Sequence record: OR995200.1
Source of the DNA: Escherichia phage JY01
Direction: 5' to 3' (one strand)
DNA: 64,000 nt
Shown here: one piece after another, positions 2,299-44,728 of the stretch
Layout: every line of letters begins with the position of its first letter
Position numbering within the stretch: the stretch's first letter is position 1
Notes under the pieces: model-generated
The model's input: only the letters and a program-made list of their open reading frames with translations
Told to the model about the DNA's origin: nothing
Database searches by the model: none
Program-made: the position numbers and the translations under genes

Positions 2299-2316
2299 GG
2301 GACCCGGAGGTCCCTA
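2299..2316 (-). terminator. UNCG-tetraloop RNA hairpin after gene 43
   Basis: RNA-sense GGGACC-UCCG-GGUCCC. Confidence 0.45.
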
Positions 2317-2327
2317 GATTTATTCTA

Positions 2328-5024
2328 TCAGCCAAACAGGAAGTCTAACGAAGCTTTTTCTTCATAGTCCATACCAGCCGATTCACACATGCCTGCAAGC
2401 GGTTTAACAAACGATTTTTGGAACAAAGTTGAGTAGTCAATCCAAGACAGTACGTCAGAACGAATTTCTTTTGGAAGTTCTGTACCCGACGGCCAAGCAA
2501 TGCATTTGTCACCAAATGGATTTCCTTCACGCAATGGAAGAACCATTACTTTATTTCCATCCAAAATTGGAGCTACACCTAAACCGCTAACAGCTCGACG
2601 ATAAGTTAGCACACCACGAATATGGAACGGACATTTAAATCCTGGCCAACCTTTATCATCATATTTCGCTATATCGTTCGCAGTTTTTACTTCAGCAATA
2701 ACTTTATAGTCAAGTTGACGATATTCTTTCTCGAAGTTCTTGTAATATTCTTGGACAGACTCTTCACCTTCCTGAAGAATACGACGGATACTTTCTTCAA
2801 GAGCTTCTTGGACCGCTTTAGGCGTTGAACTTTGCTGAGTTTCCATACCCATGATTTTTAGATGCGGTTCAGCAAATCGCTTATCTTCCATATCATAAAC
2901 GTTCAGAGCATAACGTTTTTTCGCTTTCCAAAATCCACCAACACCCTTTGAACCAAGTGGAGGGCAAGAAATAGCTTCACGGTCCATATGCATCAGATGC
3001 TCGCGGTTATTCATATAATCACATAACTCACGATATGCAACATCAATCATAGGTTCCATCTTTTTCTTACCGAACTGATTCATGAATTCAACTAAATCGT
3101 TCTGCTCTTTGAATCGGTCAAGACCAACTTTTTCAATAACTTTATCTACACAAACATATACCGAATCAGTATCACCTGCTGCGATGAAATCTTCGCCATT
3201 AGTTCCACATACTTTATTCAGATACTCATTAATTTTACGAGCAATCCACTGAATACCGACTTGACCAAAAATTGTAATAGCAGTAGCATTTCGCAAATCA
3301 TAGTAGCGGAAATGAATATTACCAAGAGCACCGTAAAGGCTGTTAATAAGAATTTTACGGTTCAGCTGATTTGTATTAGCAAGTGTAGCCGCTTTTTCAC
3401 ATTCTTCAATCAAACTATTGAGAACAGATTCAGTATAATTCGATAGTTCATTTAAGAAATCATCACTGAACTTAACATATCGTTTAACTTCAGGTTTAGT
3501 TGAACAAGACCCTGCGCCTTTCATAATAATCTTTTTAATAGCTTCGGCATTCATTTCTTCAGCGAACATTTTCTTTTTCCAATCTTTACGCTGGAAAAAT
3601 ACTTTAGCGATTTCCTTTGGAATGATACCTTCTTGATGCTTATCATACATCCATCCATTCGGAGAACAAGAATATTCATCACTCGGTTTAGGAGCTGTTC
3701 CTGCGATATATTCATGAATTGGATGAACTTTAAACTGACCACGAATAGTCTCAGGACTAATGTTAACCTGACGAATAATGCTCGGATACAGAGACGTCAA
3801 GTCAAAACTCATAATATATCGACGAGCAATTGGTTTAGGTTCAAATACAAATGCACCCGGAAAACTTTGTTTAACGTGCGAACCTTGTTGAGGAATAACC
3901 TTATGTTCACCTTTCAATGAGTTAAAAATAATAGCATCCCAAGTTTTAATAGGACTCATTACACCAGAAAAAGGCATTTTAGCATAATAAGACATACTTA
4001 AAACTAGATCGATAAACCCGCGAATTTTATCAATTGCTTGAACTGATTCTACGTCAATGATGTTATAACTAATGTATCGTTGATGATTAGTCTCACGAAG
4101 TTTATTAATAGGACCGTCGTATGGTAATTTACCTTTTTTGGTTTCATGCTGAGCAACTGATTCCAAAGAGAATGACGGCAAATTAGTAAATGCGAATTTC
4201 TTATACAAATCTAAATAATCAAGAATAGATACGCCATCAATAGAATAAATTTCTTTGCTACCGTACATATTTTGGATAAGTTTAGATTTTACTCGACCGA
4301 TTGGAGAGAAGCGTTTCATACTGCGTTCACCAAGAACCATTTTAACACGATTCATGATATACGGAACGTCAAATCCCTCAATATTCCAACCAGTAAAAAT
4401 AGCAGGTCGTTTCTGTTCCCAAAGATTAATATATTCCATGAGCATATCACGCTCATTATCGAATGGCATATAAATTACTCGGTCAAGAATTTCTTGAGGA
4501 ACTTCATCACCACCTTCACAGTCAAGCTTAGCAGCTAACTTTGCATCCCATTTTGATACTGAACCGTACATTGAATTCAAAAGGTCGAAAACATAAAAAC
4601 GATCATCAATTGAATCGTAATGAGTGATAGCATCAATTTCATATTCAGCTTTCATTGGGTCAGGAAATTTATCACCAGTAACCTCAATGTCACAGTTAGC
4701 TACACGAACAAATTTTCGGTCATAAACAATTTCTGAACCATATGTATCACTGATATAAGCGAGTTTAAAATCGTTCATACCGAGAGCTTCGAGACCGATG
4801 TCTTCCATTCGTTTCATCCAATCTCGAGCATCTTTCATTGATGGAAATTTTTGAGGAGCACAGTTTTTACCATAGATGTCTTTGTACTTTGACTCTTCCT
4901 TACAATGTCTAAACATAGTTGGAAGATATTCTACTTCACGAGTACGTTCCTTTCCGTTTTCATCAATATAACGTTCAACAATGTTATTTCCGACTGTTTC
5001 AATAGAGATATAAAATTCTTTCAT
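2328..5024 (-). CDS. 43: DNA polymerase (family B, with 3-5 exonuclease)
   Basis: 898 aa ORF; sequence matches T4 gp43 as recalled, including the DTDS polymerase motif. Confidence 0.95.
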   Translation of the reverse strand: MKEFYISIETVGNNIVERYIDENGKERTREVEYLPTMFRHCKEESKYKDIYGKNCAPQKFPSMKDARDWMKRMEDIGLEALGMNDFKLAYISDTYGSEIVYDRKFVRVANCDIEVTGDKFPDPMKAEYEIDAITHYDSIDDRFYVFDLLNSMYGSVSKWDAKLAAKLDCEGGDEVPQEILDRVIYMPFDNERDMLMEYINLWEQKRPAIFTGWNIEGFDVPYIMNRVKMVLGERSMKRFSPIGRVKSKLIQNMYGSKEIYSIDGVSILDYLDLYKKFAFTNLPSFSLESVAQHETKKGKLPYDGPINKLRETNHQRYISYNIIDVESVQAIDKIRGFIDLVLSMSYYAKMPFSGVMSPIKTWDAIIFNSLKGEHKVIPQQGSHVKQSFPGAFVFEPKPIARRYIMSFDLTSLYPSIIRQVNISPETIRGQFKVHPIHEYIAGTAPKPSDEYSCSPNGWMYDKHQEGIIPKEIAKVFFQRKDWKKKMFAEEMNAEAIKKIIMKGAGSCSTKPEVKRYVKFSDDFLNELSNYTESVLNSLIEECEKAATLANTNQLNRKILINSLYGALGNIHFRYYDLRNATAITIFGQVGIQWIARKINEYLNKVCGTNGEDFIAAGDTDSVYVCVDKVIEKVGLDRFKEQNDLVEFMNQFGKKKMEPMIDVAYRELCDYMNNREHLMHMDREAISCPPLGSKGVGGFWKAKKRYALNVYDMEDKRFAEPHLKIMGMETQQSSTPKAVQEALEESIRRILQEGEESVQEYYKNFEKEYRQLDYKVIAEVKTANDIAKYDDKGWPGFKCPFHIRGVLTYRRAVSGLGVAPILDGNKVMVLPLREGNPFGDKCIAWPSGTELPKEIRSDVLSWIDYSTLFQKSFVKPLAGMCESAGMDYEEKASLDFLFG

Positions 5025-5062
5025 AGATATTCCTTAGTTTATAGCCCGAGTTATTAGGCTCT
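5025..5062 (-). promoter_or_regulatory. Gene 43 translational operator region (hairpin plus Shine-Dalgarno)
   Basis: RNA-sense AGCC-UAAUAACUC-GGGCU hairpin followed by AAGGA and AUG. Confidence 0.45.
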
Positions 5063-5082
5063 TGATATATTATACTCCAAAT

Positions 5083-5098
5083 AAGGGGCCGAAGCCCC
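5083..5098 (-). terminator. UUCG-tetraloop RNA hairpin
   Basis: RNA-sense AGGGGC-UUCG-GCCCCU. Confidence 0.45.
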
Positions 5099-5104
5099 TT
5101 TGCT

Positions 5105-5341
5105 TTAAATTTCTATTGTACGACGCGATATAACGGACTTGCCATCTTTATTTGTGGTTTTGATAATCGCATGAAATACGCGTTGGCGTGGGTAAACTAA
5201 TCGTTGGAATTCTTTTTGGAATTCTATTTGTTTATCTTCCGGGAGGTCAAAAACTAGTTGGGTAGAAGACAGACCATATGTTTGTTTTAGATTTTCGAAT
5301 ATTAGAAAAGCTTCGGTAAACTGAATCTCTGATTGTGTCAT
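5105..5341 (-). CDS. Hypothetical protein
   Basis: ORF between regA and 43; start set at internal ATG with AAGG upstream. Confidence 0.4.
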   Translation of the reverse strand: MTQSEIQFTEAFLIFENLKQTYGLSSTQLVFDLPEDKQIEFQKEFQRLVYPRQRVFHAIIKTTNKDGKSVISRRTIEI

Positions 5342-5351
5342 ATAATTTACC

Positions 5352-5720
5352 TTAATTACCAATCGTATATTTAGGAACGAGTTTCCATTCGTGCTTTTGT
5401 TTAAAAGAAATAACTCGGAAGTTATTAGTTAAATCTTTCATAAAAGTTCTTTGTCCAGGAACGATTTCAATTAGTCCCCAATCTTCTAACAGCCATGCAA
5501 TCGAATCACGACGAACTTCATCTTCTTCTGTCATTTCAACTTGGCGACCATCCATACGAAGCATTTCTTTAAAATGAACGATATAGTATAGTCCTTTTTT
5601 CTGAAGAATATGACAGGACTGATACAGAACTTTATCTTTATTATTAGCAATTCCCATACGAGTCAAAGTTTCTTTTACTTTCAGAAAATCTTCAGGTTTT
5701 TTAAGAGTAATTTCAATCAT
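5352..5720 (-). CDS. regA: Translational repressor RegA
   Basis: 122 aa, position and sequence consistent with T4 RegA. Confidence 0.8.
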   Translation of the reverse strand: MIEITLKKPEDFLKVKETLTRMGIANNKDKVLYQSCHILQKKGLYYIVHFKEMLRMDGRQVEMTEEDEVRRDSIAWLLEDWGLIEIVPGQRTFMKDLTNNFRVISFKQKHEWKLVPKYTIGN

Positions 5721-5721
5721 T

Positions 5722-6285
5722 TTACCATTCCAATGCTAGTTTTTTGAGTTGTTTCTGTTCTTTTACGTTCTTAGTCACTTCTTTCAAAAAATCATCCGTG
5801 ACTAAACCTTTTAGTTCTTTTAATACTAAAGGAAGTTTTCCATTTTTAGTAAGAATTGATTTATAGTTAATTGCATCATTTGTGTTAACTTGATACCGCT
5901 TAGCAAGTAACTTAATAATCAATACTTCGGTGGAATCTTCAACTAGTTTTGCCCATTTACCATATCTTTTACCACGAGGAACTGCAGCCATTAGATAATT
6001 AAAATGAGCTTCATCGCTTAAGCCTGATCCAATTAAATTCATAGCATATACAGCTGGCATGCACTCTGGAAATTGTGATAATGCATTTTCAACCATGAAT
6101 TTTGAATAATCTTTTTGAGCAATAGAGCATTTAGTTTTATTATTAATAGCTCCAATTATTTCAAAAAATTCATTTTCAGCTTTTTCTTTAAAAGAATCAG
6201 CAGCGGATTGGACAGCTGTCCAATCTTTTGAATACCAAGCAACTTGATGCTCGTTTAATTGAATATCATCTTCAAATAAGCTCAT
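5722..6285 (-). CDS. 62: Clamp loader small subunit
   Basis: 187 aa from internal ATG; position between regA and 44. Confidence 0.8.
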
Positions 6286-6286
6286 A

Positions 6287-7246
6287 TCACTTCCACTGCA
6301 TTTCACATGCTAACTGAATGAAAAGATAAACTAGATGCAATTCAGTATTAGCTGCAATACCATGATACTGATTATTTTCGCCGACAATTTCGTACATACG
6401 AATAATACTCTGTGGAGTTACACGTGAATAGATTTCTTCGGCAAGTTTACCCACGAACCACGAATAATCGGCTGCATATTTTGGTGCTAAAGCTCTGAGT
6501 TGTTTAACATCTTTATTTTTGAGAGACTCAAGAACATCATCAATAGCACCACGATCGTTAGTAACCAGTGATAAAATACCAGCATCCAAAACACCTTTAG
6601 ATGAATAACTATCGAGCTCGCCAATAGTTTTACGAAAATCAGGAAAATTCTTTTTAACCAAAGCTGCTACAACTTTCATATCAGCTATAGCAATTCCTTC
6701 ATGCTTACAGATTTCAGTCAATCGACGAATCATCTGCTTCATCATTTCAATTTTATCTTCATCGGTCGGTTGACCGAATGTGATAACTCGGCAGCGTGAC
6801 TGAAGCGGTTTAATAATACCATCAATATTGTTAGCAGTAATAATAATACTACAGTTCGAACTATAAGCTTCCATAAAGGAACGAAGATGTCGCTGAGACT
6901 CTGCTAATCCTGAACGGTCAAATTCATCAATAACGATTACTTTTTGACGACCGTCAAATGAAGCGGCGCTGGCAAAATTAGTCAAAGGACCGCGAACGAA
7001 ATCAATTTTACAATCTGATCCATTCACAAACATCATATCAGCATTTACATCATGACACAATGCTTTTGCTACAGTTGTTTTACCTGTTCCTGGAGAAGGA
7101 GAATGAAGAATAATATGTGGAATCTTACCTTTACTTGTAATAGATTTAAAGGTTTCTTTATCAAAGGCGGGAAGAATACATTCATCGATAGTAGATGGAC
7201 GATATTTCTGTTCAAGAATGTGTTCTTTTTCATTTACGGTAATCAT
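6287..7246 (-). CDS. 44: Clamp loader ATPase subunit
   Basis: Walker [11 protein letters not shown], Walker [12 protein letters not shown] motif; 319 aa from MITVNEK. Confidence 0.9.
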
Positions 7247-7280
7247 AATTTCCTCATTCAAGTTTTAGTGTAAATTATAA

Positions 7281-7294
7281 AGGGCCGAAGCCCT
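7281..7294 (-). terminator. UUCG-tetraloop RNA hairpin between genes 45 and 44
   Basis: RNA-sense AGGGC-UUCG-GCCCU immediately after gene 45 stop. Confidence 0.45.
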
Positions 7295-7297
7295 CTA

Positions 7298-7984
7298 TTA
7301 AAAATCGTGGGTAGAATCAGCTTCAAGAGCTACTACATAATTCGCGTGTTCACCTTCAAATTTAGCAGCACCTTGTTTACCTTTTGCCCAGAGCAGAAGT
7401 TTATAATTTCCTGGTTGCATTTTCATATTTGCCATATTGATAATGAAATTAAATGTATTTTCACCATCATAATCACCAAGAGTCAAAGAATATTTAACAC
7501 GGGTCAGAGCAGAATCTTCTACTTTATTAAAACCGTTAATTACGATTTTACCTTCTTTTACCGTGATAGCAATTGTATCAATCTGCAGACCACGAGATAC
7601 ACGCAACAGCTGTTGAAGGTCTTCAGCTTTAATTTCAGTAACAACAGATGCTACTGGGAATGGAATTGGTTTATTAGGAGCAACTACTGTACTCGGATCG
7701 GCTGCTGGCCAAAAAATTGTTGAACGGGCATCAGCAATTTTAATATTTCCATCTTCTGACTGGGAAATTTCTGCATCATCATTAACTAAAGACAGAATAC
7801 CGAGAAAACCATTCAAATCGTAAATTGCTACATCAAAATCAATAGTGTCAGAAATATTTGCTTCCGCATAAGTTGTACCATTAACTGCACGAGTCATAAT
7901 AAATTGACCGGATTTAAGCATAATACCAGAGTTAATAGTAGCGAAATTTTTAAGCAGAGCAGTAGTATCTTTAGACAGTTTCAT
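7298..7984 (-). CDS. 45: Sliding clamp
   Basis: 228 aa, matches T4 gp45 length and sequence as recalled. Confidence 0.9.
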   Translation of the reverse strand: MKLSKDTTALLKNFATINSGIMLKSGQFIMTRAVNGTTYAEANISDTIDFDVAIYDLNGFLGILSLVNDDAEISQSEDGNIKIADARSTIFWPAADPSTVVAPNKPIPFPVASVVTEIKAEDLQQLLRVSRGLQIDTIAITVKEGKIVINGFNKVEDSALTRVKYSLTLGDYDGENTFNFIINMANMKMQPGNYKLLLWAKGKQGAAKFEGEHANYVVALEADSTHDF

Positions 7985-8012
7985 GTAATTTCCTTCAATT
8001 CAAATGAGATTT

Positions 8013-8039
8013 AATTTTATAACTAATTTAATAAAGCAA
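8013..8039 (-). promoter_or_regulatory. Candidate MotA-dependent middle promoter for gene 45
   Basis: MotA-box-like ATTGCTTTA (RC of 8031-8039), 12 nt spacer, -10 TAAAAT (RC of 8013-8018). Confidence 0.45.
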
Positions 8040-8429
8040 TTAACGATTAAAATCAGCAGCAATTGTTTCCGCAACAATTTGAGCAGCAACAATTAGACGT
8101 TCATCTGCATTACCGCAATAATCATCTTCAAGGCGTTCACCGCATGAAGTCATAATAAATTTAGCACCAGCATTTAGAGATTCTGTCGTATGTTTGCGCA
8201 TTAGTTCAATCCATTTATTACTTACTTCACGATCGATAGCTTCATAATATGCATGACGAGCAGGTGCAGATTTAATTTTGTTCTGAATAACTTCCATTGC
8301 GTTATCAGAAAGAGACAAAACCCATGCGCGACGAATTTTATTTTGGTTTTGCGGATTTGAGTCAGAACGCACGTGTTTTGGCTGAATATCTTTTACATCA
8401 ACAGTATAATTCACAGTAATTTTAGTCAT
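8040..8429 (-). CDS. rpbA: RNA polymerase binding protein A
   Basis: 129 aa ORF immediately downstream of gene 45 as in T4. Confidence 0.6.
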
Positions 8430-8438
8430 AATACACCT

Positions 8439-8627
8439 TTAGTCATAATAATCAGTAACAGTCCAAGCTTCATTTCTATTGGACATTATTTTTGTATATT
8501 CTGCTTTAAATGCATTCCTAAGCATAGATTCAGTAACTATATGCTCTTCATTAGAAAAATTATTTCTCAGAATATATCGTTTTATTTCAGGAATAGTTAA
8601 TAGATGCTGTCCAGTTGAATATTCCAT
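8439..8627 (-). CDS. Hypothetical small protein
   Basis: 62 aa ORF between rpbA and 46. Confidence 0.4.
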   Translation of the reverse strand: MEYSTGQHLLTIPEIKRYILRNNFSNEEHIVTESMLRNAFKAEYTKIMSNRNEAWTVTDYYD

Positions 8628-8642
8628 GTTTTTCCTCCATAG

Positions 8643-8678
8643 AGATTATACTCTAATAAATTAAAGCATAATCTCTTA
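8643..8678 (-). other. 9 bp inverted repeat with 18 nt loop between 46 and upstream gene
   Basis: AGAGATTAT ... ATAATCTCT. Confidence 0.35.
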
Positions 8679-8682
8679 TAAA

Positions 8683-10365
8683 TTAAACCATTACAGTAAA
8701 TCGACCAACTTTCTTCATTTGAAGATGCTGACCGTATGCTTGCGGGTCATGGTCTCTATGCGAAATAACAAAAACATTAGTATTTTTTAAACTATCTAAA
8801 ATAGTTGAAATAGCTTTTACACCTTCAACGTCGGTCGCTGAATCAAAAACTTCATCAAGAATTAGTGTGTTTATTTTAACGCCTGAAACTTTTTCAGCAA
8901 TATCACGCCAAGTAAATAAAAGAGCAATATCAATTCGCGCTTTTTCACCTTGACTGAATGAAGCATAACTAAAATCTTCACGACCACGTGATTTAATTGT
9001 CTCATTAAATTCTTCATCTAATGTAAACACATAATCCGCTTCCATTATTTTAAGATAATGGTTAATCTGCTTATTAAATAATGGAATGTACTTTTTAATA
9101 ATAGCACCTTTAATACCAGAATCTTTGAGCATATCAGTCAAAATTCCTCGGTGGTATTTTTCCATTACTAAATTAGTTTTTGTCTTAACAATTTTATCAA
9201 GTTCTTCTTGAAGCAGTGCTATTTCATCAGCATGGTCAATAAACTCAGAAGATGCTTTTTCTATAGCCGCTTTAACCTTTTTAGCTTTATCTACTGCTGC
9301 GATCAGAGATTGCTTTTTATTGCGAATATCATTTGCCAACGACTGCTGGGTTTTAATATTATCTCGGTATTCATCAACAAGAACTTTTAAATTATCACGA
9401 TGTGTTGAAAGCTGTTCAAACGAATGCGTACATTCAGAAACTTTATCTTTAATTTTAGAAACAACTTTATCACCTGAACTTAATTGTGACAAGCAGGTTG
9501 GGCATAATCCACCTTCGTGATACATATTAATGACTTTATTATACGAGTCAATTTTTGATTTAATTAAAACTGCTTCTTGACCGATTTTATTAAATGCATC
9601 AGTCGGGTCTTCATCTAAAACAATATTAACTAATCTTTCATTAGCTTCTTCTATTTCCGATTTTAGCGTTCTAGCTTCTTTTGCCAAATCATCATACATA
9701 TTTTGAAGACGAGTAAGGTTGTCACCCGTTAATTTTTTCTGGCGTTCAACGTTATCATTATATATTTTAATTTGTTGGATAATACTATCTTTTTTAACAT
9801 CAAGCACTTGGTTTTGTGAATTTAATTCACGTATTAGTGCTTTATTAAGCTTATCCATTTCAGCTAATGTTCCTACCTCAAGCAGGTCTTCCACAAGCTT
9901 TCTTCGCGCAGGGGTCGACAAACCCATGAAAGGGGTATACCCTGCTGTACCAAGGACAACAATCTGCTTGAAACTGGCATATGACATTCCGATAAGCTGT
10001 TCAAATTCTGCTTGGAAATCTTTACTGCTGGCAGATTCATTAAGACGTGTACCGTTAACGGTGATTTCGAAAACGTTTGGTTTTTGTCCTCTTTTGATAT
10101 AGTACTTTTTCTCATCATATTCCATCCACAGTTCAACTAAAAGTTCTTTCTTATTTGTGCTGTTTATTAATTGACCTTTCTTTACATCACGAAATGGCTT
10201 GCCAAAAAGCCCAAATGTGATGGCTTCTAACATAGTAGACTTACCACCGCCATTTCGTCCAGTAATAAGAGTTTTTTGAACCTTATCTAATTGAATGCCA
10301 ATAGGATTTCCACCTACTGACATTATATTTTGATACCTAACTCGGTTTAGTTTAAAATTCTTCAC
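8683..10365 (-). CDS. 46: Recombination endonuclease subunit (SbcC/Rad50-like ATPase)
   Basis: 560 aa; N-terminal Walker A GRNGGGKST, coiled-coil with CPTC zinc hook, C-terminal Walker B LILDEVFD. Confidence 0.9.
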   Translation of the reverse strand: MKNFKLNRVRYQNIMSVGGNPIGIQLDKVQKTLITGRNGGGKSTMLEAITFGLFGKPFRDVKKGQLINSTNKKELLVELWMEYDEKKYYIKRGQKPNVFEITVNGTRLNESASSKDFQAEFEQLIGMSYASFKQIVVLGTAGYTPFMGLSTPARRKLVEDLLEVGTLAEMDKLNKALIRELNSQNQVLDVKKDSIIQQIKIYNDNVERQKKLTGDNLTRLQNMYDDLAKEARTLKSEIEEANERLVNIVLDEDPTDAFNKIGQEAVLIKSKIDSYNKVINMYHEGGLCPTCLSQLSSGDKVVSKIKDKVSECTHSFEQLSTHRDNLKVLVDEYRDNIKTQQSLANDIRNKKQSLIAAVDKAKKVKAAIEKASSEFIDHADEIALLQEELDKIVKTKTNLVMEKYHRGILTDMLKDSGIKGAIIKKYIPLFNKQINHYLKIMEADYVFTLDEEFNETIKSRGREDFSYASFSQGEKARIDIALLFTWRDIAEKVSGVKINTLILDEVFDSATDVEGVKAISTILDSLKNTNVFVISHRDHDPQAYGQHLQMKKVGRFTVMV

Positions 10366-11987: not shown

Positions 11988-12006
11988 TAAAGGGCCGAAG
12001 CCCTTT
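11988..12006 (-). terminator. UUCG-tetraloop RNA hairpin at a-gt stop
   Basis: RNA-sense AAAGGGC-UUCG-GCCCUUU overlapping stop codon. Confidence 0.45.
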
Positions 12007-13207
12007 ATTTTGTAATAATGTCAAACTGTTCTTTAAAACAGAAGCTTGAATCTTGATGCTGATACAAAAATTCATAAGCTTTTTCACGTTCGCGGTCATA
12101 AAGAGCTCGGTCAGATGACAGTTCTTTAATACGTTCAAATGTTGATTCCATATCATTTTCATCAAACCAAATGATACCGCTATCATGCGAGGTCAAAGGA
12201 GTATTATCAACACGGAATTTTAAATTTTCGCCAGTAGATTTCCAAAATACCGGAATTGTTCCACATGCACCAAGCTCGAGATGAGTATATTCTAAAGAAC
12301 GTTGTAGATATTTTTTATCCAACTTACTCAACTGATAACCAAAACCGGATTTACTCATACGTTCAAGCATTTCGCTATTTACATAACGGTCAAGAATTTG
12401 CGTTGGCAAATTAGGAGCAATTTTAATTTGGTCTACTTGATGAAGACGATAATACTCGTATGGAATTCCTTTTTCTTTAATAGGAATGAACGCTGGAGAA
12501 CGTTCCAGACCTTCCATAATAGTACTTAGTCCTGCAGGTTTAAGATGTTTTTCATGAAAATCAAACATCTGATAAAAACCTTTCCATGTAGTCGTACGAC
12601 CAATCCAACGGTTAACATTCATGTTAACTTCAGAAACATCTTTCCAGTAGGTTGACCGAACCTTCGCAATATCCATAGGAGGCTGAAAGTTATATACTGT
12701 CGGTGCTTCTTCAATATCATCAAACAGAGAAACAGTTTCTGGATACCATTCTTTCATCAGAACTTTATTAAAATCGCCATTATCAGAATGGCTAAAAATA
12801 ACATCAGCTCGACGAACAGTTTCTTCTAATCCCAAATTTCGACGCAAAGAAAGAGAAGAATGGTCATGCTGATAAACTACAACACGAACAGAAGGTTTAA
12901 TGTTATCAATAATTTTTTTATAGTTATTAATAGTGTCTTCTTCAACCGAAGTAGCAGGAACTGAATTGATAATTAGAATATCACAATCATTTACCAGCTT
13001 AAGTGTTTTATCGTATTCTTTTGCCAATAAAACCGGAATTGAAAATGATTTATAATCATGCGCACAATTACGAGTAAATGATTTATCTTTAGCATAAACC
13101 AAAGTTACTTCATGACCATTTTTAATAAACCAATCACGTTGCTCAAGAGAAAATTTAGTTACACCACAACCTTCAAGACCTCGAGCCATAAAAATACATA
13201 CTTTCAT
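12005..13207 (-). CDS. a-gt: DNA alpha-glucosyltransferase
   Basis: 400 aa, position downstream of 47 region and length match T4 a-gt. Confidence 0.8.
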   Translation of the reverse strand: MKVCIFMARGLEGCGVTKFSLEQRDWFIKNGHEVTLVYAKDKSFTRNCAHDYKSFSIPVLLAKEYDKTLKLVNDCDILIINSVPATSVEEDTINNYKKIIDNIKPSVRVVVYQHDHSSLSLRRNLGLEETVRRADVIFSHSDNGDFNKVLMKEWYPETVSLFDDIEEAPTVYNFQPPMDIAKVRSTYWKDVSEVNMNVNRWIGRTTTWKGFYQMFDFHEKHLKPAGLSTIMEGLERSPAFIPIKEKGIPYEYYRLHQVDQIKIAPNLPTQILDRYVNSEMLERMSKSGFGYQLSKLDKKYLQRSLEYTHLELGACGTIPVFWKSTGENLKFRVDNTPLTSHDSGIIWFDENDMESTFERIKELSSDRALYDREREKAYEFLYQHQDSSFCFKEQFDIITK

Positions 13208-13940: not shown

Positions 13941-13941
13941 A

Positions 13942-15629: not shown

Positions 15630-15645
15630 AAGGGCCGAAGCCCTT
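15630..15645 (-). terminator. UUCG-tetraloop RNA hairpin
   Basis: RNA-sense AAGGGC-UUCG-GCCCUU. Confidence 0.4.
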
Positions 15646-16530: not shown

Positions 16531-16604
16531 AATGATAAGAAGGGAACGATAGCTTAGAATGGTAATATACAGAATGTAAGAAAGAAAGGCCCAGAGGGCC
16601 CGTC

Positions 16605-16900
16605 TTAGTCTTCTATGATATCTCTATCATATCCAAGTGAAATGAGAGTTTCTTTGAAGTGTTTAATGTTCTTTTGTCTAGAATCATTAATGAAAATGAC
16701 TGGATAACGAATGTTAAGAGATGTGAATCCAGCGCGTTTAGCAAGAGATACAATCAGCGGACGATCATACTCAATCTTACCATTATTTGTAAGAACTTTA
16801 TAGAAAGTAAAAGGAGCATTGAGCTCCTTTAGAAGTTTTGTAACTGATTGACATCCAGGACAACGACCAACTTCATCTGGAATTCCGTAGACTTCAATCT
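16605..16900 (-). CDS. Glutaredoxin/NrdH-like redoxin, start codon unresolved
   Basis: KIEVYGIPDEVGRCPGCQS with CPGC redox motif; no in-frame ATG at the domain start. Confidence 0.5.
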
Positions 16901-28821: not shown

Positions 28822-28910
28822 TTTATTCTCCAAATCTGTATCAGTAGTTGATAGTTGTATAGTACCATAAAGCTTTATGATTGTAAACCGTTTTGTGAAA
28901 AATTTTTGAA
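28822..28910 (-). promoter_or_regulatory. Early promoter cassette copy 4
   Basis: -35 TTTACA (28882-28887), -10 TACTAT (28859-28864); leader identical to copy 1. Confidence 0.6.
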
Positions 28911-28926
28911 ATAAAAAAGGGAGCCC
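28903..28926 (-). terminator. Terminator-like UUCG hairpin after nucleotidyltransferase gene
   Basis: RNA-sense GGGAGCC-UUCG-GGCUCCC followed by U-run. Confidence 0.55.
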
Positions 28927-28938
28927 GAAGGCTCCCTA

Positions 28939-31929: not shown

Positions 31930-32256
31930 TACATACTCCTTTGAATAATATCAATAATGTTGTTCACCAAATTATAAGTAAACATTGGGTAATTATATTG
32001 AATCATCACATACACAACAAACAAAACTTTCATTCTCTTCTCCTTGACAGTTGGCAAGATTACTATACCATAATCTTGCCAACTTGTAAACCATTAAATG
32101 ACGTTTTCGATAAAATTCTGAAGCTTTGTATGAGCATCAACCATGATTTTCAATTCTTCTTTAGCGAAAGCTGTGCCTCTTTCACGAGAAGAGCATTCAT
32201 AGTCAGAAACTGCATTAGCATATTCTTCAATTAGTTTCATTAAAAACATCTGCTTT

Positions 32257-32845: not shown

Positions 32846-32925
32846 GATGTTCTCCTCTTTATCCGATAGTTGTATAGTATCACAGCTCAAACGGAAAGTA
32901 AACCGGTAAAATGAAAAAAGTCTCC
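32846..32925 (-). promoter_or_regulatory. Early promoter cassette copy 5 (diverged)
   Basis: -35 TTTACT (32897-32902), -10 TACTAT (32874-32879). Confidence 0.45.
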
Positions 32926-32935
32926 CGAAGGAGAC
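32915..32935 (-). terminator. Terminator-like UUCG hairpin
   Basis: RNA-sense GUCUCC-UUCG-GGAGAC followed by U-run. Confidence 0.55.
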
Positions 32936-32940
32936 TAATG

Positions 32941-33327: not shown

Positions 33328-33617
33328 TCAGTCTCCAATTTAATGTTCATAATTCTAGCGTATGATTGTGCCATCTCCGCGCCTCGTTCTATACATTCAA
33401 AATCAGAAGAGCACGGGTCATTTTTATAGGTCGTTCTCATAAAACTATAGAACTGTTCAGATGATTCTACGCTTTTATTTTCAAAAAGCATATAAACATG
33501 TCTAATACCAGATTCCATAAATTTATCAAAATGAGGATCGACATTCGCTTCAATCGATGGTGATAAAGCAAATGACAATCCTAGCATGGCAAATAGTGCC
33601 GTTGCTTTTAAGGCCAT
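33324..33617 (-). CDS. rI: Lysis inhibition regulator (antiholin)
   Basis: 97 aa with N-terminal signal-anchor; sequence recalled as T4 RI-like; adjacent to tk. Confidence 0.75.
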   Translation of the reverse strand: MALKATALFAMLGLSFALSPSIEANVDPHFDKFMESGIRHVYMLFENKSVESSEQFYSFMRTTYKNDPCSSDFECIERGAEMAQSYARIMNIKLETE

Positions 33618-33629
33618 AAAGGCCTCCTA

Positions 33630-37042: not shown

Positions 37043-37101
37043 GTTGTTCTCCTCTTAACTGATAGAAAAATTATACCACAGTCAAGAGGAAAAGTAAACA
37101 G

Positions 37102-37422
37102 TTATTCTTTAAATCTAATCAATTTATTCATAGACTTTGAAACTTCTGCACGAACCTCATGTAAGTTTTTAAGCTGTTCAAGACGCTGCTCATAGTAAGC
37201 AATTTCATCTTCTTCGAGACAGTCCTGTGAATCTTCTTTAAGATAACGTGCATAGTCCTGAAAAGCTTTACGGACTACTTCCTGGAAGTCATCAAGACTT
37301 TGAATTTTCTTAGGAGCGACAGATACACGACGAGGTGCAGTATAATACTCATAACCAAACCCTGCACTTAATTGAGCCATTAGTATTTTTCCTCTGGTTT
37401 GAACACTGCACGACAAGCCCAC
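37102..37422 (-). CDS. Hypothetical protein
   Basis: 106 aa ORF. Confidence 0.45.
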
Positions 37423-37646
37423 ATACTGGCTTCTTTGAGTTTCGTTTTAGCAATAGTTAACTGATCGAGGCTTTCAGCATAATTCTTCGCGAGTTCATAG
37501 TCTTCACAGCTATCAAATGCTTCCCAAAATTCATCGTATAAAGCATCAAAGATAAGTCCTAAACGAACTTCAGCGTCTTTGATAGCATTCACTTTACCGA
37601 TTTTCTCTTCAGTATGCGGCTTATAACCTTTAATGTCTTCAATCAT
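37380..37646 (-). CDS. Hypothetical protein
   Basis: Start set at internal ATG; overlaps neighbour. Confidence 0.4.
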
Positions 37647-37860
37647 ATTTGACTTCCTCACCAGTACATAAATCATATTCAACTAAACGAATAGGTTCAT
37701 GAATGCCATATCCCTGAACAGAAATTTCTGTAGTAGGATAAATTCCATCAATATCACCCATATTCCACGCTTCGTTAAATTGCTGTTCGCCTGAATTACT
37801 AAACCACTCGGCGAAAGCATTTAGCACATCTTTAGAACCTTCAATAATTATCTTTGCCAT
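37639..37860 (-). CDS. Hypothetical protein
   Basis: 73 aa ORF. Confidence 0.4.
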   Translation of the reverse strand: MAKIIIEGSKDVLNAFAEWFSNSGEQQFNEAWNMGDIDGIYPTTEISVQGYGIHEPIRLVEYDLCTGEEVKYD

Positions 37861-38222
37861 TACAAACTCTCGGTGAAGGTACGAGCGATAACGTCGCGCT
37901 GCTGTTCCGGAGTCAGAGAGTTAAAGCGAACTGCATAACCGGATACACGGATGGTCAGCTGCGGATATTTTTCCGGATGCTTAACTGCATCTTCCAGAGT
38001 TTCACGACGCAGAACGTTAACGTTCAGGTGTTGACCACCTTCAATTTTAACTGTAGGCTGTGGCTCAATTTCAATTTCACGGGCATGCAAACCGTAGAAA
38101 ATTTCTGGGTCTACAAAAGAGTCCTCTTTAAAGGTTTTAGAGACAATAATTCGTGCTTGAATACCATCTTCAAAATAAATAGTGCCTTTATGTGTGCCTT
38201 CAAGAATTTGATATGCTTTCAT
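37860..38222 (-). CDS. Autonomous glycyl-radical cofactor (GrcA/YfiD-like)
   Basis: C-terminal [29 protein letters not shown] glycyl-radical motif, recalled as near-identical to E. coli GrcA. Confidence 0.8.
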
Positions 38223-38229
38223 ATAAACC

Positions 38230-38559
38230 TCAATTAGAAAATAAATTTATCCAAGATTGTTCTTTAATTAAAAATGGCTCAGCATCATATGCCATTAAAC
38301 TTTGGGTAATTAATCCTTTAAAAGGTCCATCAATAAATTCCATGGTAAAATATGGAATTTTATTCATTAGCCGTGCATTAGGAGCAGTACACAAAACTCT
38401 GCATCCTTTGAATACACCTTTTTGTAATTTGTATTGCTTGGGATAAAATTCGCTCAAAATGTTATTATTTGCCAAAATTTCAAAATGATTCACCAATTTA
38501 TTTTTAATAGTTTTTGGCGAAAAATAAAGATATTCGAAAAGCTGTGTGTCTGTCATCAT
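38230..38559 (-). CDS. Hypothetical protein
   Basis: 109 aa ORF. Confidence 0.45.
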
Positions 38560-39098
38560 TGCATTCCAATCACAAAAAATTGAGGACGAACTGTTTCACC
38601 TGTTTCAGCATTATAGCTTCGACAACAGTGTTGTACCGTTTTAATATGGATATTGTAAATCTTATCCATATCAGGAGCTTTAATAGGTTCGTCAATTATG
38701 TACAAGATACGAGAAAGCGATAACCCACGGAATTTATGACCTTCATTACCGATAAAACTACGGACAGAATCAGTAAATAAACGAAAACGTATATCATCAT
38801 TAGAATAACGCGAAAATTCCTTTTTAATGTTATTTGCAGAAATTTTAGCGTAAGCTGAAGTATTAGAAAGAACAATAACTGTTCCGCCATCATACAGCCA
38901 ATTAGCAGCAAAGTTAGTCACAGCAATTGATTTACCGGATTGACGTCCACCATCTATACGAAGTGTGCAGTACTGTTTGAGCACATCTTCCATTGGTGGA
39001 AGATAATCATTCTTACAAATTTCTTCTACTCTAGCATCAGAATGGTGTGTAAAAGCATTCATCAGGGATAGATAAGGACCAGTTAAAAATGTTCTCAT
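38556..39098 (-). CDS. P-loop NTPase
   Basis: Walker A GGRQSGKS, Walker B-like LYIIDEP; start uncertain. Confidence 0.45.
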   Translation of the reverse strand: MRTFLTGPYLSLMNAFTHHSDARVEEICKNDYLPPMEDVLKQYCTLRIDGGRQSGKSIAVTNFAANWLYDGGTVIVLSNTSAYAKISANNIKKEFSRYSNDDIRFRLFTDSVRSFIGNEGHKFRGLSLSRILYIIDEPIKAPDMDKIYNIHIKTVQHCCRSYNAETGETVRPQFFVIGMQ

Positions 39099-39239
39099 TT
39101 TATTCTCTCTAAGTTTGGGCCATTCCGTGGCGCATGAATTGTCCATTTCTGTATTTACCCATTACCGCACTTGGGCTCGACCTTATCACAGGTTGGCGGG
39201 AATCCCTCACAGAATCATGAGGTCCAGGTTGTTCCCATA

Positions 39240-39713
39240 TTATTTGAACGATTTAACGTACTGAATAGAACCCTTACTATTCACAAAGGCAATTTTACCA
39301 TTTTTATTATACATGGTAGCAGTACGCTGATAACCATAGGTTTGTTTACCAGATTGATAACCAACTAATGCAAAATTATCTTCACCCATTTTATTCTGTT
39401 TAGCGCGAATGCGTTCATGACCATGTGCCATAAGAACCTTAGCATCACCAGTTGCAATGGATCGACGAGTTTTTTCATCTTCAACTGCATTAACAAAGTC
39501 GTCAAATGAATCAAATTTAGCATGAGATTTATTATACAATTTTCCATCTACTGCATAATTATATCCCTGTACATCCATCTCAACTTCTGTACCATCATCC
39601 AATACAGCAGTAATTTTTTGACCTTTTTTAAATTTCAAAAGATCAGTAAAAGATTCAGCAATAATTTGAGAATTAATAGCTGCTTCAGTGATAAATTCTT
39701 GATATGTTTTCAT
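39240..39713 (-). CDS. Internal-protein-like protein with capsid targeting sequence
   Basis: N-terminus MKTYQEFITE followed by A (LxE-type prohead protease site). Confidence 0.55.
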   Translation of the reverse strand: MKTYQEFITEAAINSQIIAESFTDLLKFKKGQKITAVLDDGTEVEMDVQGYNYAVDGKLYNKSHAKFDSFDDFVNAVEDEKTRRSIATGDAKVLMAHGHERIRAKQNKMGEDNFALVGYQSGKQTYGYQRTATMYNKNGKIAFVNSKGSIQYVKSFK

Positions 39714-39722
39714 GTGTTTCCT

Positions 39723-40139
39723 TTAAATGTAAATATTTTTACCGTAGTATTTATACCAGTGTGGCTTCATTAAAATTTTTTCATCGAGTCGTTGTTGACT
39801 CAATTTAATAGCTGATTTGCATGGATTATAATCATTTTTCCATTCTGCTGGAATATCGCTGATGTCAGGAACTTCAGTATCTTTTATATTGAACCCACGT
39901 TTTAAGCATTCCGTTATAATGTCTGATTGACGCTTTCGCAAAAATTCTAACTTATCGTAAAAGAACGTAACATGACCAGAGCCTAAAATAAACTCGGAAG
40001 ATATTTTAAAATCTTTAACCCGCTTACCATTTGCCACATGTTTACGAACTATACCAAAAACGCGTGGCAATTCACGGTATTCTGCGATTAAATGTTGATC
40101 AGCAAGTTCAGATACTAAAGTCAAATTAATACGAGTCAT
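39723..40139 (-). CDS. denV: Endonuclease V (pyrimidine dimer glycosylase)
   Basis: 138 aa, [17 protein letters not shown] matches T4 DenV as recalled. Confidence 0.9.
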
Positions 40140-40198
40140 TTTATCCCTCCAAGTAACTGTGAATATACTATCACAATTCTAGAAGAAAGTAAACAACT

Positions 40199-41167
<969 letters not shown>

Positions 41168-41186
<19 letters not shown>

Positions 41187-41656
41187 TCAGTGATAAAATT
41201 ATTTAAATTTTGAGTATATTTCTTTTCATCAAAAATCTTTTGCTGCCTACGTAACCGCCATGGCATTTCAATGAACACGCACCATATTCCTGATAGTACT
41301 GCTGCTGTAAAAATATTAACAAGTATAATTAAAAGAATCCAATCTTCCGTTCTGCCTACTGGACTTTCTCCAAAGAAGCAAAATACAAATGATGTCACAG
41401 GAAAACTAATAATATACCACAGAATAACCTTCTTATCTGTGAACCAATCAGCGTTCGTTAACTTAGCGCGACCATTATGAATACACACGAATTTATCATC
41501 TGTTATAATAGATGGCTTAGCTGCTTGATATCCCATTCTAAACTCCCTAATCAACAAATTTTTCATATCTTCAGAACAACCATTCCAGTCAACTCTATCA
41601 ACTGAAATGCCATCATCCCCATCATCTAAATCATACCAGCGAGTTTTTAAAATCAT
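41168..41656 (-). CDS. Membrane protein, C-terminal FITECRK motif
   Basis: Two hydrophobic helices; C-terminal FITECRKLK. Confidence 0.45.
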
Positions 41657-42027
41657 TTAATTTTCCTACAATCACTCACAAACTCTTCCATTGATTCTTT
41701 TTCAATATAAGACATGTAGCTATTATATTCCTTTAATTGTATTTTGTAATCTTTTTTTCTTTGCCAATTTATTTTAAAATTATCATAATGAAAATATAAC
41801 ATGGTACCAAAGAATGAAAATAATGAAATCGCTATAGTATAATGAAGTTCACTCCAAACTTCTATTATATCTATTATACCGCTGACGTTACTACGGATGT
41901 TTAAAATAAGACAGTCAATTAACAATCCAAAAAGACTACCCGCAAGAGCTGCAGCCAACGCTACAGCAAAAATTAAAAATGACTCAGGAAGAGAATATTT
42001 GACTTTATTTAGTTTTGGCTTTTGCAT
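41653..42027 (-). CDS. Membrane protein, C-terminal FVSDCRK motif
   Basis: Hydrophobic helices; C-terminal FVSDCRKIK. Confidence 0.45.
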   Translation of the reverse strand: MQKPKLNKVKYSLPESFLIFAVALAAALAGSLFGLLIDCLILNIRSNVSGIIDIIEVWSELHYTIAISLFSFFGTMLYFHYDNFKINWQRKKDYKIQLKEYNSYMSYIEKESMEEFVSDCRKIK

Positions 42028-42422
42028 CGTGATTCCTTAACAAATTTCATAATTTCATCAAATTCATGCGCAGCAAGTTTAAGCTGATGTTCCTTTTTAA
42101 TCTTTTTACACTGAGCTTTCCAATCACGTACACGTTTACGATAGTGTCTTCCTTGATACCAATATCCTATCCAATTTATAGGTACTAATAAAAGCGGAAC
42201 TACCAACGGAAGAATTAGTGTTGCTCCAAATATTGCACCAGATTCAATATCAGTCATAACGTCTATAACCATTCCAGCAATCACCAGAATCACAAATGAT
42301 ACAACTACCACAGGACCTATTAACACATCAGTAGAAATTATCTGACGCTTTAATTCATACTTCAACGGTTTACTTGGAAGGTATAGTGATGGTTTTGACA
42401 TATTCTCTACATTCCTTAACAA
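42009..42422 (-). CDS. Membrane protein, C-terminal FVKESRCK motif
   Basis: Hydrophobic helices; C-terminal FVKESRCKSQN. Confidence 0.45.
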   Translation of the reverse strand: MLRNVENMSKPSLYLPSKPLKYELKRQIISTDVLIGPVVVVSFVILVIAGMVIDVMTDIESGAIFGATLILPLVVPLLLVPINWIGYWYQGRHYRKRVRDWKAQCKKIKKEHQLKLAAHEFDEIMKFVKESRCKSQN

Positions 42423-42978
42423 ATTTTTCTAATAATAAATCGCTTTCAAAATTGGGATTTTCTACGAATTTATCAAAAAGATCATCGACAATAGTTAAGA
42501 TATTCTTTTTACTAAGAATACGTTTATTTTCATATTTTGTTTCAGAGTCAACTATAAGAGTAAAGAAATATTTCTTGCCCTGAAATTTTACAGTAGTATC
42601 AATATAGAATAAATTTGACTTTTGTAAATTACGTTTAAACCATGCATCACTTAAACTATAAACGCCAAGATAATCATAATCGTCGTTTAAATAACAGACC
42701 GTCCATTCAGGAGAAACAAAATCAGTAAATTCAACGTCAAAATCGCATGTTAATAAATGAATTGATTCAATACTGTTAATAAGTATTCCAGGACGTATTA
42801 AAGACTTTTTACCTCTAGAAAATCTTCCAGAAAGATTTTCAACAGTTTCATATGAAGAACCCCAATAATAATTACGTCCTTCTGCCATACGTTTAAGAGC
42901 ATTTAATAATTGGTCTGGAACATCAACCTGTCTTTGGAACTCTTCAAACATTGAATTGAAATCACTTTGCATTTTCAT
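42370..42978 (-). CDS. Hypothetical protein with FVKECREY motif
   Basis: 202 aa; C-terminal FVKECREYVK. Confidence 0.45.
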   Translation of the reverse strand: MKMQSDFNSMFEEFQRQVDVPDQLLNALKRMAEGRNYYWGSSYETVENLSGRFSRGKKSLIRPGILINSIESIHLLTCDFDVEFTDFVSPEWTVCYLNDDYDYLGVYSLSDAWFKRNLQKSNLFYIDTTVKFQGKKYFFTLIVDSETKYENKRILSKKNILTIVDDLFDKFVENPNFESDLLLEKFVKECREYVKTITIPSK

Positions 42979-42996
42979 TCCTACTTACTCCAAGTA

Positions 42997-43016
42997 ATAG
43001 GGGCCGAAGCCCCTTA
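42997..43016 (-). terminator. UUCG-tetraloop RNA hairpin
   Basis: RNA-sense AGGGGC-UUCG-GCCCCU after stop of 43020-43613 gene. Confidence 0.45.
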
Positions 43017-43019
43017 TCA

Positions 43020-43613
43020 TTATTTCAGAGAATTAATATATTCCTGAACATCGGCAGAGGTAGTTTCAACCCCAGAAATATTACCATTAAAGGTTTCAAC
43101 TCGAGCAAGAGTATCTTCAATATCAACCTTAGTCAGTGCTGCAATTTCAACTACATCATCAGCAGTACTAATTCCAAGGGCATTCGCGGCGCGAGTTTCA
43201 CGGATATATTCCAATTTAACTGCAAGTTCTTGGCGAGCATCATCTAACTCAACTACTTTCTTGGCGATTTCAATTCGCATTTCAGCATAACCATCAGCTT
43301 TAGTAGTCAACTGCTCAGCTGTTCGACGATATAGTAAACCAAGTTTAGCATGCATTGTTACATCTTGACCTTCCGAAAGGAGCTTGCGAATTTCACGCTC
43401 TTTTGATTCGGCCTGCTTATTCTTTTCGACAATAAGTTCACGAATACGCTTTTCTTCATTAATAGATTTAACAGAAGCAGTTTTTAGATCTTTAATTTTA
43501 TCAAGCAATTTTGCTGCTGCGGCAGTATACTGCTCTTCAACAGATAGATTTTTAGCCATAGCAGAACCAAGTTTAGTGCGAATAAACTCAACAATTTTCT
43601 TCAGTGTGTTCAT
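43020..43613 (-). CDS. Coiled-coil protein, possibly PspA/IM30-like
   Basis: All-helical heptad-rich 197 aa; [15 protein letters not shown] resembles a PspA segment as recalled. Confidence 0.4.
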
Positions 43614-43656
43614 AGTATTTCCTTAGGTTGATTAGAAATTAAAATCTGCAGAAGAA

Positions 43657-44172
43657 TTATATCATGCTACTTAAGAGATGTAAACTATTTTTAATTTTAC
43701 AAATTCGTTCAGCTTCTTCAACAGCGGCAGTGATAATGCTTTTAGCTATAGGAGTACTAATACTAGTAGCTTTTACACTTAACACGATTTCTTTATCTTT
43801 ACCAGGCCAACCCCACGATTTTTCACCATGGGTGCCTTTAATTACAGCAGACACCTCAAGTGAGCATCCATTATCGCATGTTTTTACATTAACAACCCAA
43901 GTGTCACTTTTCTCAACCGGTTTATCCCAGTAAATATTAAGAATACGTGGAACATCAAATTTAGCAGGGCAAATCTTAACCGTAAGACCTTCGCTTTCTA
44001 GCCAATTAATAAGAGGGCGTTCATACATGCGGCGATGTGGGCTTTGAACTCGACAAGCTTTGTACCCATTGCTTGCGGCTTCACTAAGCTCTTCTAATAC
44101 CTGCTTTTGCATTATTGATAAGATACCATCAAAAGATTTTTCGGAAGTTTCATTCAGTTCGGTATAAAGAGA
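43657..44172 (-). CDS. Hypothetical protein
   Basis: Start set at MSLYTELNET. Confidence 0.45.
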   Translation of the reverse strand, partial: SLYTELNETSEKSFDGILSIMQKQVLEELSEAASNGYKACRVQSPHRRMYERPLINWLESEGLTVKICPAKFDVPRILNIYWDKPVEKSDTWVVNVKTCDNGCSLEVSAVIKGTHGEKSWGWPGKDKEIVLSVKATSISTPIAKSIITAAVEEAERICKIKNSLHLLSSMI

Positions 44173-44231
44173 CATAACAGTTTTCCTCAAATTATAGGCT
44201 CATAATATCTCAATCATGAGCCTATGTAAAC

Positions 44232-44495
44232 TTATTTCATATTATTGAAATATTCTTCTGCGATTTCGTCGTTATCATGGTAAACTTTAGAAGACAGTTT
44301 AACATAACCTTCAGCAGTGAACATGTTAATCACAACCTTTACAGTATACCACTGACCATCTTCATTACCCATTACTGCATAGGTTTCAAACATCGGATGA
44401 TCAGGACCGATAACTTTAATATCATTCACCGTACGACCGAAATCTTCTGAAACACATTTCATAAAGAAGTTGAACAGTTCACCGTAATTATCCAT
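44232..44495 (-). CDS. Hypothetical protein
   Basis: Start ATG 44493-44495 with GGAG, downstream of promoter cassette. Confidence 0.45.
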   Translation of the reverse strand: MDNYGELFNFFMKCVSEDFGRTVNDIKVIGPDHPMFETYAVMGNEDGQWYTVKVVINMFTAEGYVKLSSKVYHDNDEIAEEYFNNMK

Positions 44496-44610
44496 TTCAT
44501 TCTCCAAGTTGTTTTCTGTATCAGTAGTTGATAGTTGTATAGTACCATAGAAGAACAGGGATGTAAACAGTTTTGTGAAAAATTTTTAAAAAGTTTTGGG
44601 GAATTCTAGG
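44496..44610 (-). promoter_or_regulatory. Early promoter cassette copy 6
   Basis: -35 TTTACA (44562-44567), -10 TACTAT (44539-44544); GGAATTC upstream block as in copy 1. Confidence 0.6.
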
Positions 44611-44700
44611 GCAGGGAGGGGAAATCAAAGGATAGGATAATATATTATAAAGGGTAGAAACTAAATGATGTCTAGAGAGGCCTGGAAAGGCCTAGATACC

Positions 44701-44728
44701 AAAAAGCCCCAACCTTTCGGCTAGGGCT
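44701..44728 (-). terminator. Rho-independent terminator (GAAA loop) after internal-protein-like gene
   Basis: RNA-sense AGCCCUAGCC-GAAA-GGUUGGGGCU followed by UUUUU. Confidence 0.6.

Follow-up and report, generated by a model that had tools for sequence, protein, structure and literature searches.

The UUCG tetraloop was first found in the mRNA of bacteriophage T4 and is extraordinarily stable (Tuerk et al. 1988, PNAS 85:1364, as cited in PMC4371310), and C(UUCG)G hairpins are a known feature of T4 intercistronic regions (Tuerk et al. 1988, as cited in PMC4371310 and PMC8948821). T4 intergenic stem-loops, transcription terminators among them, often carry this stabilising loop, and GGAG motifs inside such stem-loops resist RegB (PMC1702504). 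A related group of elements, the PeSLs, are stem-loops lying just upstream of early promoters in T4/PST and other T4-like phages. PeSLs are effective terminators in a reporter assay, and a role in modular recombination has been proposed for them (PMC2839356, PMC4122927). A corresponding layout in which a stem-loop accompanies a middle promoter (PmSL-type) is known from the distant vibriophage nt-1 (Comeau et al. 2014); no analysis of this layout in T4 proper was found in the literature searched. Here we describe the UNCG-loop hairpins found at gene boundaries in a 64,000-nucleotide stretch of Escherichia phage JY01 (OR995200.1), referred to below as the window.

The window contains nine strong intercistronic UNCG hairpins, all on the minus (mRNA-sense) strand, eight with a UUCG loop and one with UCCG (Table 1; hairpins are named by their first coordinate). 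They were recovered by searching exhaustively for perfect-stem tetraloop hairpins, and folding of every minus-strand C-UNCG-G or G-UNCG-C site yielded no further convincing member. All nine have a UNCG loop closed by a C-G pair and a stem of 5-8 perfect Watson-Crick pairs. Near-identical cores, (A)AGGGCTTCGGCCCT(T), recur at 7281, 11988 and 15630, and the 7281 stem extends to nine pairs if flanking A-U and G-U pairs are counted. Candidates at 46606 (inside a tRNA) and 53441 (antisense to plus-strand genes) were rejected, as were 35478 and others that were weak or within coding sequence. A scan of the whole window against Rfam at the gathering threshold returned only 10 tRNAs, with no family over the hairpins.

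An earlier note on this DNA had named six examples (7281, 11988, 15630, 28918, 32919 and 42999), all of which are indeed on the minus strand. Four of its positions are exact or nearly so, whereas the one it placed at 28903-28926 is off by about 12-15 nt. Beyond these six are the UUCG hairpins 5083 and 13258 and the UCCG hairpin 2298. The note's total of at least eleven UNCG sites proved too high. Eleven can be reached only by drawing on non-UNCG hairpins such as 44678, 16588 or 33611; the first two were probably counted.

Table 1. Intergenic hairpins of the window. Sequences are given as arm-loop-arm; the first nine rows are the UNCG hairpins and the last three are non-UNCG hairpins.
Coordinates	Strand	Sequence	Gene context	Downstream sequence and character	Energy (kcal/mol)	z-score
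2298-2315	minus	AGGGACC-UCCG-GGUCCCU	13 nt past gene 43 (DNA polymerase) stop	UUUUUC; terminator-like	-13.9	
5083-5100	minus	AAGGGGC-UUCG-GCCCCUU	after small open reading frame 3' of regA	gp43 operator hairpin, then gene 43 start		
7281-7294	minus	AGGGC-UUCG-GCCCU (core)	3 nt past gene 45 stop, ~25 nt before gene 44 ribosome-binding site	no proper U-run	-13.2	-4.9
11988-12007	minus	UAAAGGGC-UUCG-GCCCUUUA	first three bases are the a-gt stop codon			
13258-13277	minus	AUAGGAGC-UUCG-GCUCCUAU	upstream of a-gt		-16	-4.0
15630-15645	minus	AAGGGC-UUCG-GCCCUU	overlaps 55.3 stop	UUUUGG; terminator-like		
28918-28937	minus	AGGGAGCC-UUCG-GGCUCCCU	1 nt past nrdC.11 stop (nrdC.11/nrdC.10)	UUUUUAUUU; terminator-like	-17.4	
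32919-32936	minus	AGUCUCC-UUCG-GGAGACU	after rI.-1 stop (rI.-1/mobD.5)	UUUUUUC; terminator-like		
42999-43014	minus	AGGGGC-UUCG-GCCCCU	5 nt past e.6 stop, ~8 nt before e.5 ribosome-binding site (GGAG)	no U-run		
44678-44693	minus	AGGCCU-UUCC-AGGCCU	intergenic	no U-run		
16588-16600	minus	GGCCC-UCU-GGGCC	intergenic	UUUCUUUCUU; looks terminator-like		
33611-33625		UUUAU loop	intergenic			

The abundance of these hairpins far exceeds that expected from composition. The minus strand has eight UUCG hairpins with at least 5 stem pairs, about 20-fold more than the mean of 0.39 obtained from 300 dinucleotide-preserving shuffles, none of which gave more than 3. For the CTTCGG hexamer, 20 copies are seen on this strand where 6.5 ± 2.5 would be expected. 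Among tetraloop hairpins of at least 5 pairs, at least 3 of them G/C, UUCG is by far the most frequent loop and no other is present more than twice. UNCG loops also close 9 of the 15 perfect-stem intergenic hairpins at -7 kcal/mol or lower. On the plus strand, no UUCG hairpin reaches a stem of 4 pairs; in all of these inverted repeats the mRNA-sense strand reads UUCG and the opposite strand CGAA. Since a DNA palindrome would not be expected to be so biased, this points to selection on the RNA.

The hairpins are also confined to gene ends. All nine loops fall within the 7.9% of positions 1-52250 that is non-coding under a crude gene model (p ~1e-10, uniform model), and each hairpin is intergenic or overlaps a stop codon on the coding strand. 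Every one starts 0-25 nt past a stop codon, and at 11988 and 15630 the 5' arm contains the stop codon. Folded in 38-nt contexts, all nine sites have the hairpin as their predicted minimum-energy structure. Energies predicted with nearest-neighbour parameters range from -10.8 to -17.4 kcal/mol, and z-scores against dinucleotide shuffles, which are of limited value for short GC-rich hairpins, from -1.9 to -4.9.

Comparison with other phages indicates that the stems are maintained by compensatory change. The region from gene 43 to gene 55 was compared in Mosigvirus SA35RD, Gaprivervirus VR7, Karamvirus RZH and Jiaodavirus ATCCa. UUCG is the commonest sense-strand tetraloop in all four (2, 2, 4 and 4 hairpins, respectively), these hairpins occupy orthologous junctions with stems that differ from those of the window, and every sense-strand UNCG hairpin with at least 5 pairs, at least 3 of them G/C, has a UUCG loop. 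Upstream of gene 43, the hairpin is AAGGGGC-UUCG-GCCCCUU in the window and T4, AAUGGGAC-UUCG-GUCCCAUU in SA35RD, AAAGGGAC-UUCG-GUCCCUUU in VR7, AAGGGCC-UUCG-GGCCCUU in RZH and AAAAGGCC-UUCG-GGCCUUUU in ATCCa. The loop is thus UUCG in all five genera while the stems vary in a compensatory manner between GGGGC/GCCCC, GGGAC/GUCCC, GGGCC/GGCCC and AGGCC/GGCCU. UUCG hairpins are likewise present upstream of gene 47 in the fetched loci L003 (SA35RD), L005 and L006.

The junction between genes 45 and 44 was sampled more widely, using 96 loci from IMG/VR that encode relatives of gp45 and recording the most stable perfect hairpin within 112 nt around and after the stop codon. Where gp45 is at least 54% identical, almost every locus has a hairpin no more than 32 nt from the stop, at -7.9 kcal/mol or lower and mostly with a UUCG loop. 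By the same procedure, loci with a gp45 that is 30-37% identical, which represent environmental T4-like phages, mostly have no comparable hairpin after gene 45. The hairpin therefore appears to be a feature of the enterobacterial Tevenvirinae and not of all T4-like phages. Thirteen distinct Tevenvirinae hairpins from this junction have ten UUCG loops and one each of UUUG, UACG and GAAA. When aligned, 94.5% of their cells are paired against 68.9% in shuffles, both sides change at six of the seven stem pairs, and the covariation score is 0.742 against 0.218 in shuffles (0/500), with slid controls at or below 0.17. The GAAA loop occurs in Mosigvirus and the UACG loop, at one locus, is closed by a U-G pair; such variants suggest that selection is for a very stable tetraloop hairpin and not for the exact letters of the loop.

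Based on its sequence, the window is from a Tequatrovirus, a T4-type phage closely related to T4 itself. ECML-363 and hundreds of other Tequatrovirus genomes match it at 97-98% identity and 100% query coverage (megablast, phage genomes). Identity to T4 is about 96%, and blastn against T4 (NC_000866, 24000-73000) gives 92-98% across most segments. By comparison with the ECML-363 and T4 annotations, the minus-strand early and middle genes extend from position 1 to ~52200 in the order 42, imm, 43, regA, 62, 44, 45, rpbA, 46, 47, a-gt, 55, nrdH/G/D, 49, the nrdC.x series, the mobD.x series, rI, tk, vs, regB, denV, e, the e.x series and the tRNA cluster, with late baseplate genes on the plus strand from 52287 on.

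T4 has CUUCGG hairpins at the same junctions as the eight UUCG hairpins of the window: regA/43, 45/44, a-gt/47.1, a-gt.2/mobB, 55.3/55.2, nrdC.11/nrdC.10, rI.-1/mobD.5 and e.6/e.5. Six are identical to those of the window, including 13258, downstream of which mobB is inserted in T4. At 45/44 and 55.3/55.2, a one-C deletion in the 3' arm of the T4 hairpin replaces a G-C pair with G-U, and the T4 55.3 reading frame continues through the hairpin. At the gene 43 terminator, T4 has a UCCA loop where that of the window is UCCG. These three differing hairpins are at 7895-7915, 16820-16840 and 3170-3190 of the fetched T4 locus (L002).

A small open reading frame of ~78 amino acids from its ATG (5105-5351, minus strand) separates regA from the 5083 hairpin in the window and is absent from T4, where the regA stop codon adjoins the hairpin. 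It is 57% identical to VR7 ORF053c (JS98 ORF047c-like) and weakly similar to open reading frames in the same slot of Karamvirus and Jiaodavirus, and it is unannotated in ECML-363. It was probably lost by T4.

The sequences that follow the hairpins divide them into two groups. Hairpins 2298, 15630, 28918 and 32919 are directly followed by a U-run, and the other five have no proper one; the earlier note's remark that several sites are followed by U-runs thus applies to four of the nine. d'Aubenton-Carafa and colleagues reportedly found in 1990 that E. coli terminators often have stable tetraloops, UUCG among them. A consensus scanner of the minus strand classes the four U-run sites as terminator-like, and its T-count rule also lists 13258. 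A d'Aubenton-Carafa-type score, used with modern energy parameters and only a heuristic, is +13 to +50 at the four U-run sites and +3 (borderline) to -20 at the other five. By the pairing of a GC-rich stem with a U-run, 5083 is borderline, its U-rich tail being interrupted (UUAUUUGG), and 7281, 11988, 13258 and 42999 do not qualify. The strongest terminator-like site is 28918.

Promoter context also differs between sites. A putative sigma-70-like early promoter adjoins only 28918 and 32919, the other seven hairpins having a MotA-box-like motif or no promoter. Downstream of 28918 by ~30 nt is the early-promoter-like site GTTTACA-N17-TACTAT with an upstream TG (28859-28887), and GTTTACT...TACTAT is found within ~45 nt downstream of 32919; both fit the T4 early-promoter pattern and the PeSL layout of Comeau et al. 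No promoter-like site was called between the hairpin and the next start codon at 7281, 5083 or 42999, where only a ribosome-binding site or operator precedes the next gene. The gene 44 ribosome-binding region (AAUGAGGAAAUUAUG) follows 7281, and the gp43 translational-operator hairpin (GAGCCUAAUAACUCGGGCU), an element described in PMC3014915, is directly downstream of 5083. The start codon of 55.2 is 40 nt downstream of 15630.

Two further hairpins appear to be followed by middle promoters. Reading by eye, 11988 is directly followed by a MotA-box-like GCUUUA, a 12-nt spacer and TATAAT, and 2 nt past 13258 there is a putative MotA box matching the consensus (UGCUUUA), an 11-nt spacer and TAAAAT. 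Jiaodavirus has the same arrangement as 13258, AAAGGGC-UUCG-GCCCUUU followed by TGCTTTA.

The SA35RD record annotates a T4-type middle promoter (GCTT-N13-15-TATAAT, one mismatch; L003 5967-5996) that overlaps the UUCG hairpin upstream of gene 43, its GCTT-like core arising at the stem-loop junction (GAC-TTCG). The GCTT-TATAAT spacing at 5083-5100 in the window and in T4 is 17 nt, so this overlap may not be functional there. Use of the GCTT within GGGC-TTCG as a MotA box was considered and dropped, as its spacing to the -10 fits no window site checked by eye.

We consider it likely that the nine are typical C(UUCG)G (UNCG-class) hairpins of T4-type early and middle mRNAs, acting at the RNA level and falling into two functional subsets. 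Each hairpin would fold once transcribed, right after the stop codon, into an independent stem-loop of very high stability that sets adjacent cistrons apart. Judging by how such hairpins generally behave and by the literature, the U-run subset (2298, 15630, 28918 and 32919) is predicted to end transcription units or reduce their output through intrinsic (Rho-independent) termination or attenuation, with the downstream early promoter at 28918 and 32919 restarting transcription in a PeSL-type layout. Hairpins of the subset lacking a U-run (5083, 7281, 11988, 13258 and 42999) may act as weak pause or attenuation sites and, more importantly, as 3'-end barriers to 3'-to-5' exonucleases. They may also serve as folding insulators, keeping the next ribosome-binding site, RegA/gp43 operator or MotA-dependent promoter free of upstream pairing. 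Neighbouring genes could thereby differ in mRNA level, for example with more message for gene 45 than for genes 44 and 62.

Several points weigh against this interpretation. A canonical U-run is missing from five of the nine hairpins, whose scores are also under the threshold of the terminator heuristic, and the z-scores at 5083, 15630 and 42999 are modest (-1.9 to -2.2). The UCCA loop at T4 gene 43 and the Mosigvirus GAAA loop at 45/44 show that a UNCG loop is not strictly required. The 45/44 alignment was centred on the loop and used the best hairpin per locus, so that its counts lean towards structure; the distant loci put through the identical procedure are the fairer control for the covariation.

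A bolder and rather doubtful extension of this interpretation is that a hairpin without a U-run and the MotA box or RegA/gp43 operator immediately beside it form a compact regulatory module conserved across Tevenvirinae genera. The T-rich 5' flank of the MotA box would double as the U-rich tail of the hairpin, which would attenuate and 3'-protect early read-through RNA and position middle-mode re-initiation or translational repression. If so, the stoichiometry of the replication proteins would be set by hairpin modules.

Alternatively, all nine hairpins could be intrinsic terminators that mark operon ends, which we regard as unlikely. At every site a GC-rich stem comes straight after a stop codon; U-runs are clear at four, and at most of the others the tail is moderately rich in U if the GC core alone pairs. 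In addition, the SA35RD record annotates its junction hairpins, orthologues of 5083 and 15630, as rho-independent terminators (WebGeSTer, TransTermHP). However, four sites are clearly below the threshold of the terminator heuristic and one is borderline, and at 7281, 5083 and 42999 the flanking genes are neighbours on the same strand, with nothing promoter-like called ahead of the next start. Unless there is a further promoter, full termination at 7281 and 5083 would silence genes 44, 62 and 43, all of them essential. The earlier note's proposal that the hairpins mark operon boundaries can be retained for about half at most: only four sites have a terminator-type U-run, and several of the others are between adjacent same-strand genes. 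No transcript 3'-end mapping for T4-type phages, including a genome-wide T4 map, was found in the literature searched.

It is less probable still that the hairpins are the stem-loop halves of mobile PeSL/PmSL cassettes, serving as DNA-level recombination linkers that shuffle genes among T4-type phages. The early-promoter-like sites after 28918 and 32919, the MotA-box-like motifs after 11988 and 13258 and the recurrence of near-identical cores would all suit such a role. So would the extra open reading frame abutting 5083, which is an insertion or deletion between the window and T4, and the T4 mobB insertion 35 nt from 13258. Against this, only one of ~19 breakpoint intervals between the window and T4 abuts a UNCG hairpin, roughly as expected by chance, so the association with insertions, deletions or replacements between close relatives that would be expected of PeSLs is not seen. 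Several of the hairpins are in the conserved replication-gene core and not in hyperplastic regions, and the strict mRNA-strand bias of UUCG and the compensatory stem changes point to RNA structure, not DNA identity.

Finally, short GC-rich inverted repeats do occur randomly and some per-site z-scores are modest, but the shuffle statistics, the non-coding placement, the bias to one strand, the covarying conservation of orthologous sites in five genera and prior literature exclude functionless chance or compositional palindromes as an explanation.

Other structures were noted in the window. A perfect 14-bp stem with an 8-nt loop (32049-32084, minus strand, -18.9 kcal/mol) is just before a small gene, positioned between the -35 (GTTTACA) and over the -10 (TATAGT) of an early-promoter-like site at 32062-32090. 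This stem-loop-inside-promoter arrangement matches RB49-type PeSLs, and no copy of the arm sequence was found in any fetched locus, T4 included. Between the plus-strand open reading frames 60490-61494 and 61558-62424, which correspond to genes 8 and 9 by size and order, is a 9-bp palindromic hairpin, AAGGGAGCC-CAUG-GGCUCCCUU (61498-61519). Its stem resembles that of 28918 and its loop is self-complementary, giving the same reading on both strands. The minus-strand tRNA cluster at 45969-46987 has ten tRNA genes by Rfam against eight in the corresponding cluster of the T4 record, and similarity between the window and T4 is fragmented around it.

The feature itself is already known, the T4 CUUCGG hairpins of 1988 being the founding example of the UUCG tetraloop, and with most sites identical in T4 the finding has little value as a discovery. 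The useful output is a clean annotation of nine sites, four of them terminator-like, two with early promoters and two with MotA-box-like motifs. To this is added comparative evidence of compensatory upkeep across five Tevenvirinae genera and of absence from distant T4-like phages.

Compared with the PeSL and PmSL elements (Arbiol et al. 2010; Comeau et al. 2014), the window likewise has a stem-loop directly upstream of an early promoter at 28918 and 32919, and directly upstream of a MotA-box-like motif at 11988 and 13258. However, the UUCG loop is not singled out in those descriptions (the terms UUCG, TTCG and tetraloop are all absent from PMC2839356), and the window hairpins are not tied to insertion or deletion breakpoints beyond chance. 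With the intrinsic terminators of E. coli and its phages, 2298, 15630, 28918 and 32919 share a GC-rich hairpin and a U-run, whereas the remaining five have no canonical U-run and several of these are between adjacent same-strand genes. The closest match is to the C(UUCG)G hairpins of T4, which have the same loop, C-G closing pair and intercistronic position and occur in the same phage group. Seven of the nine sites are the same or almost the same in T4, and nothing essential differs between the two sets: at 45/44 and 55.3/55.2 the stems of the window are perfect and those of T4 have one-C deletions, and the window has UCCG in place of UCCA after gene 43 and an extra open reading frame before the hairpin upstream of gene 43.

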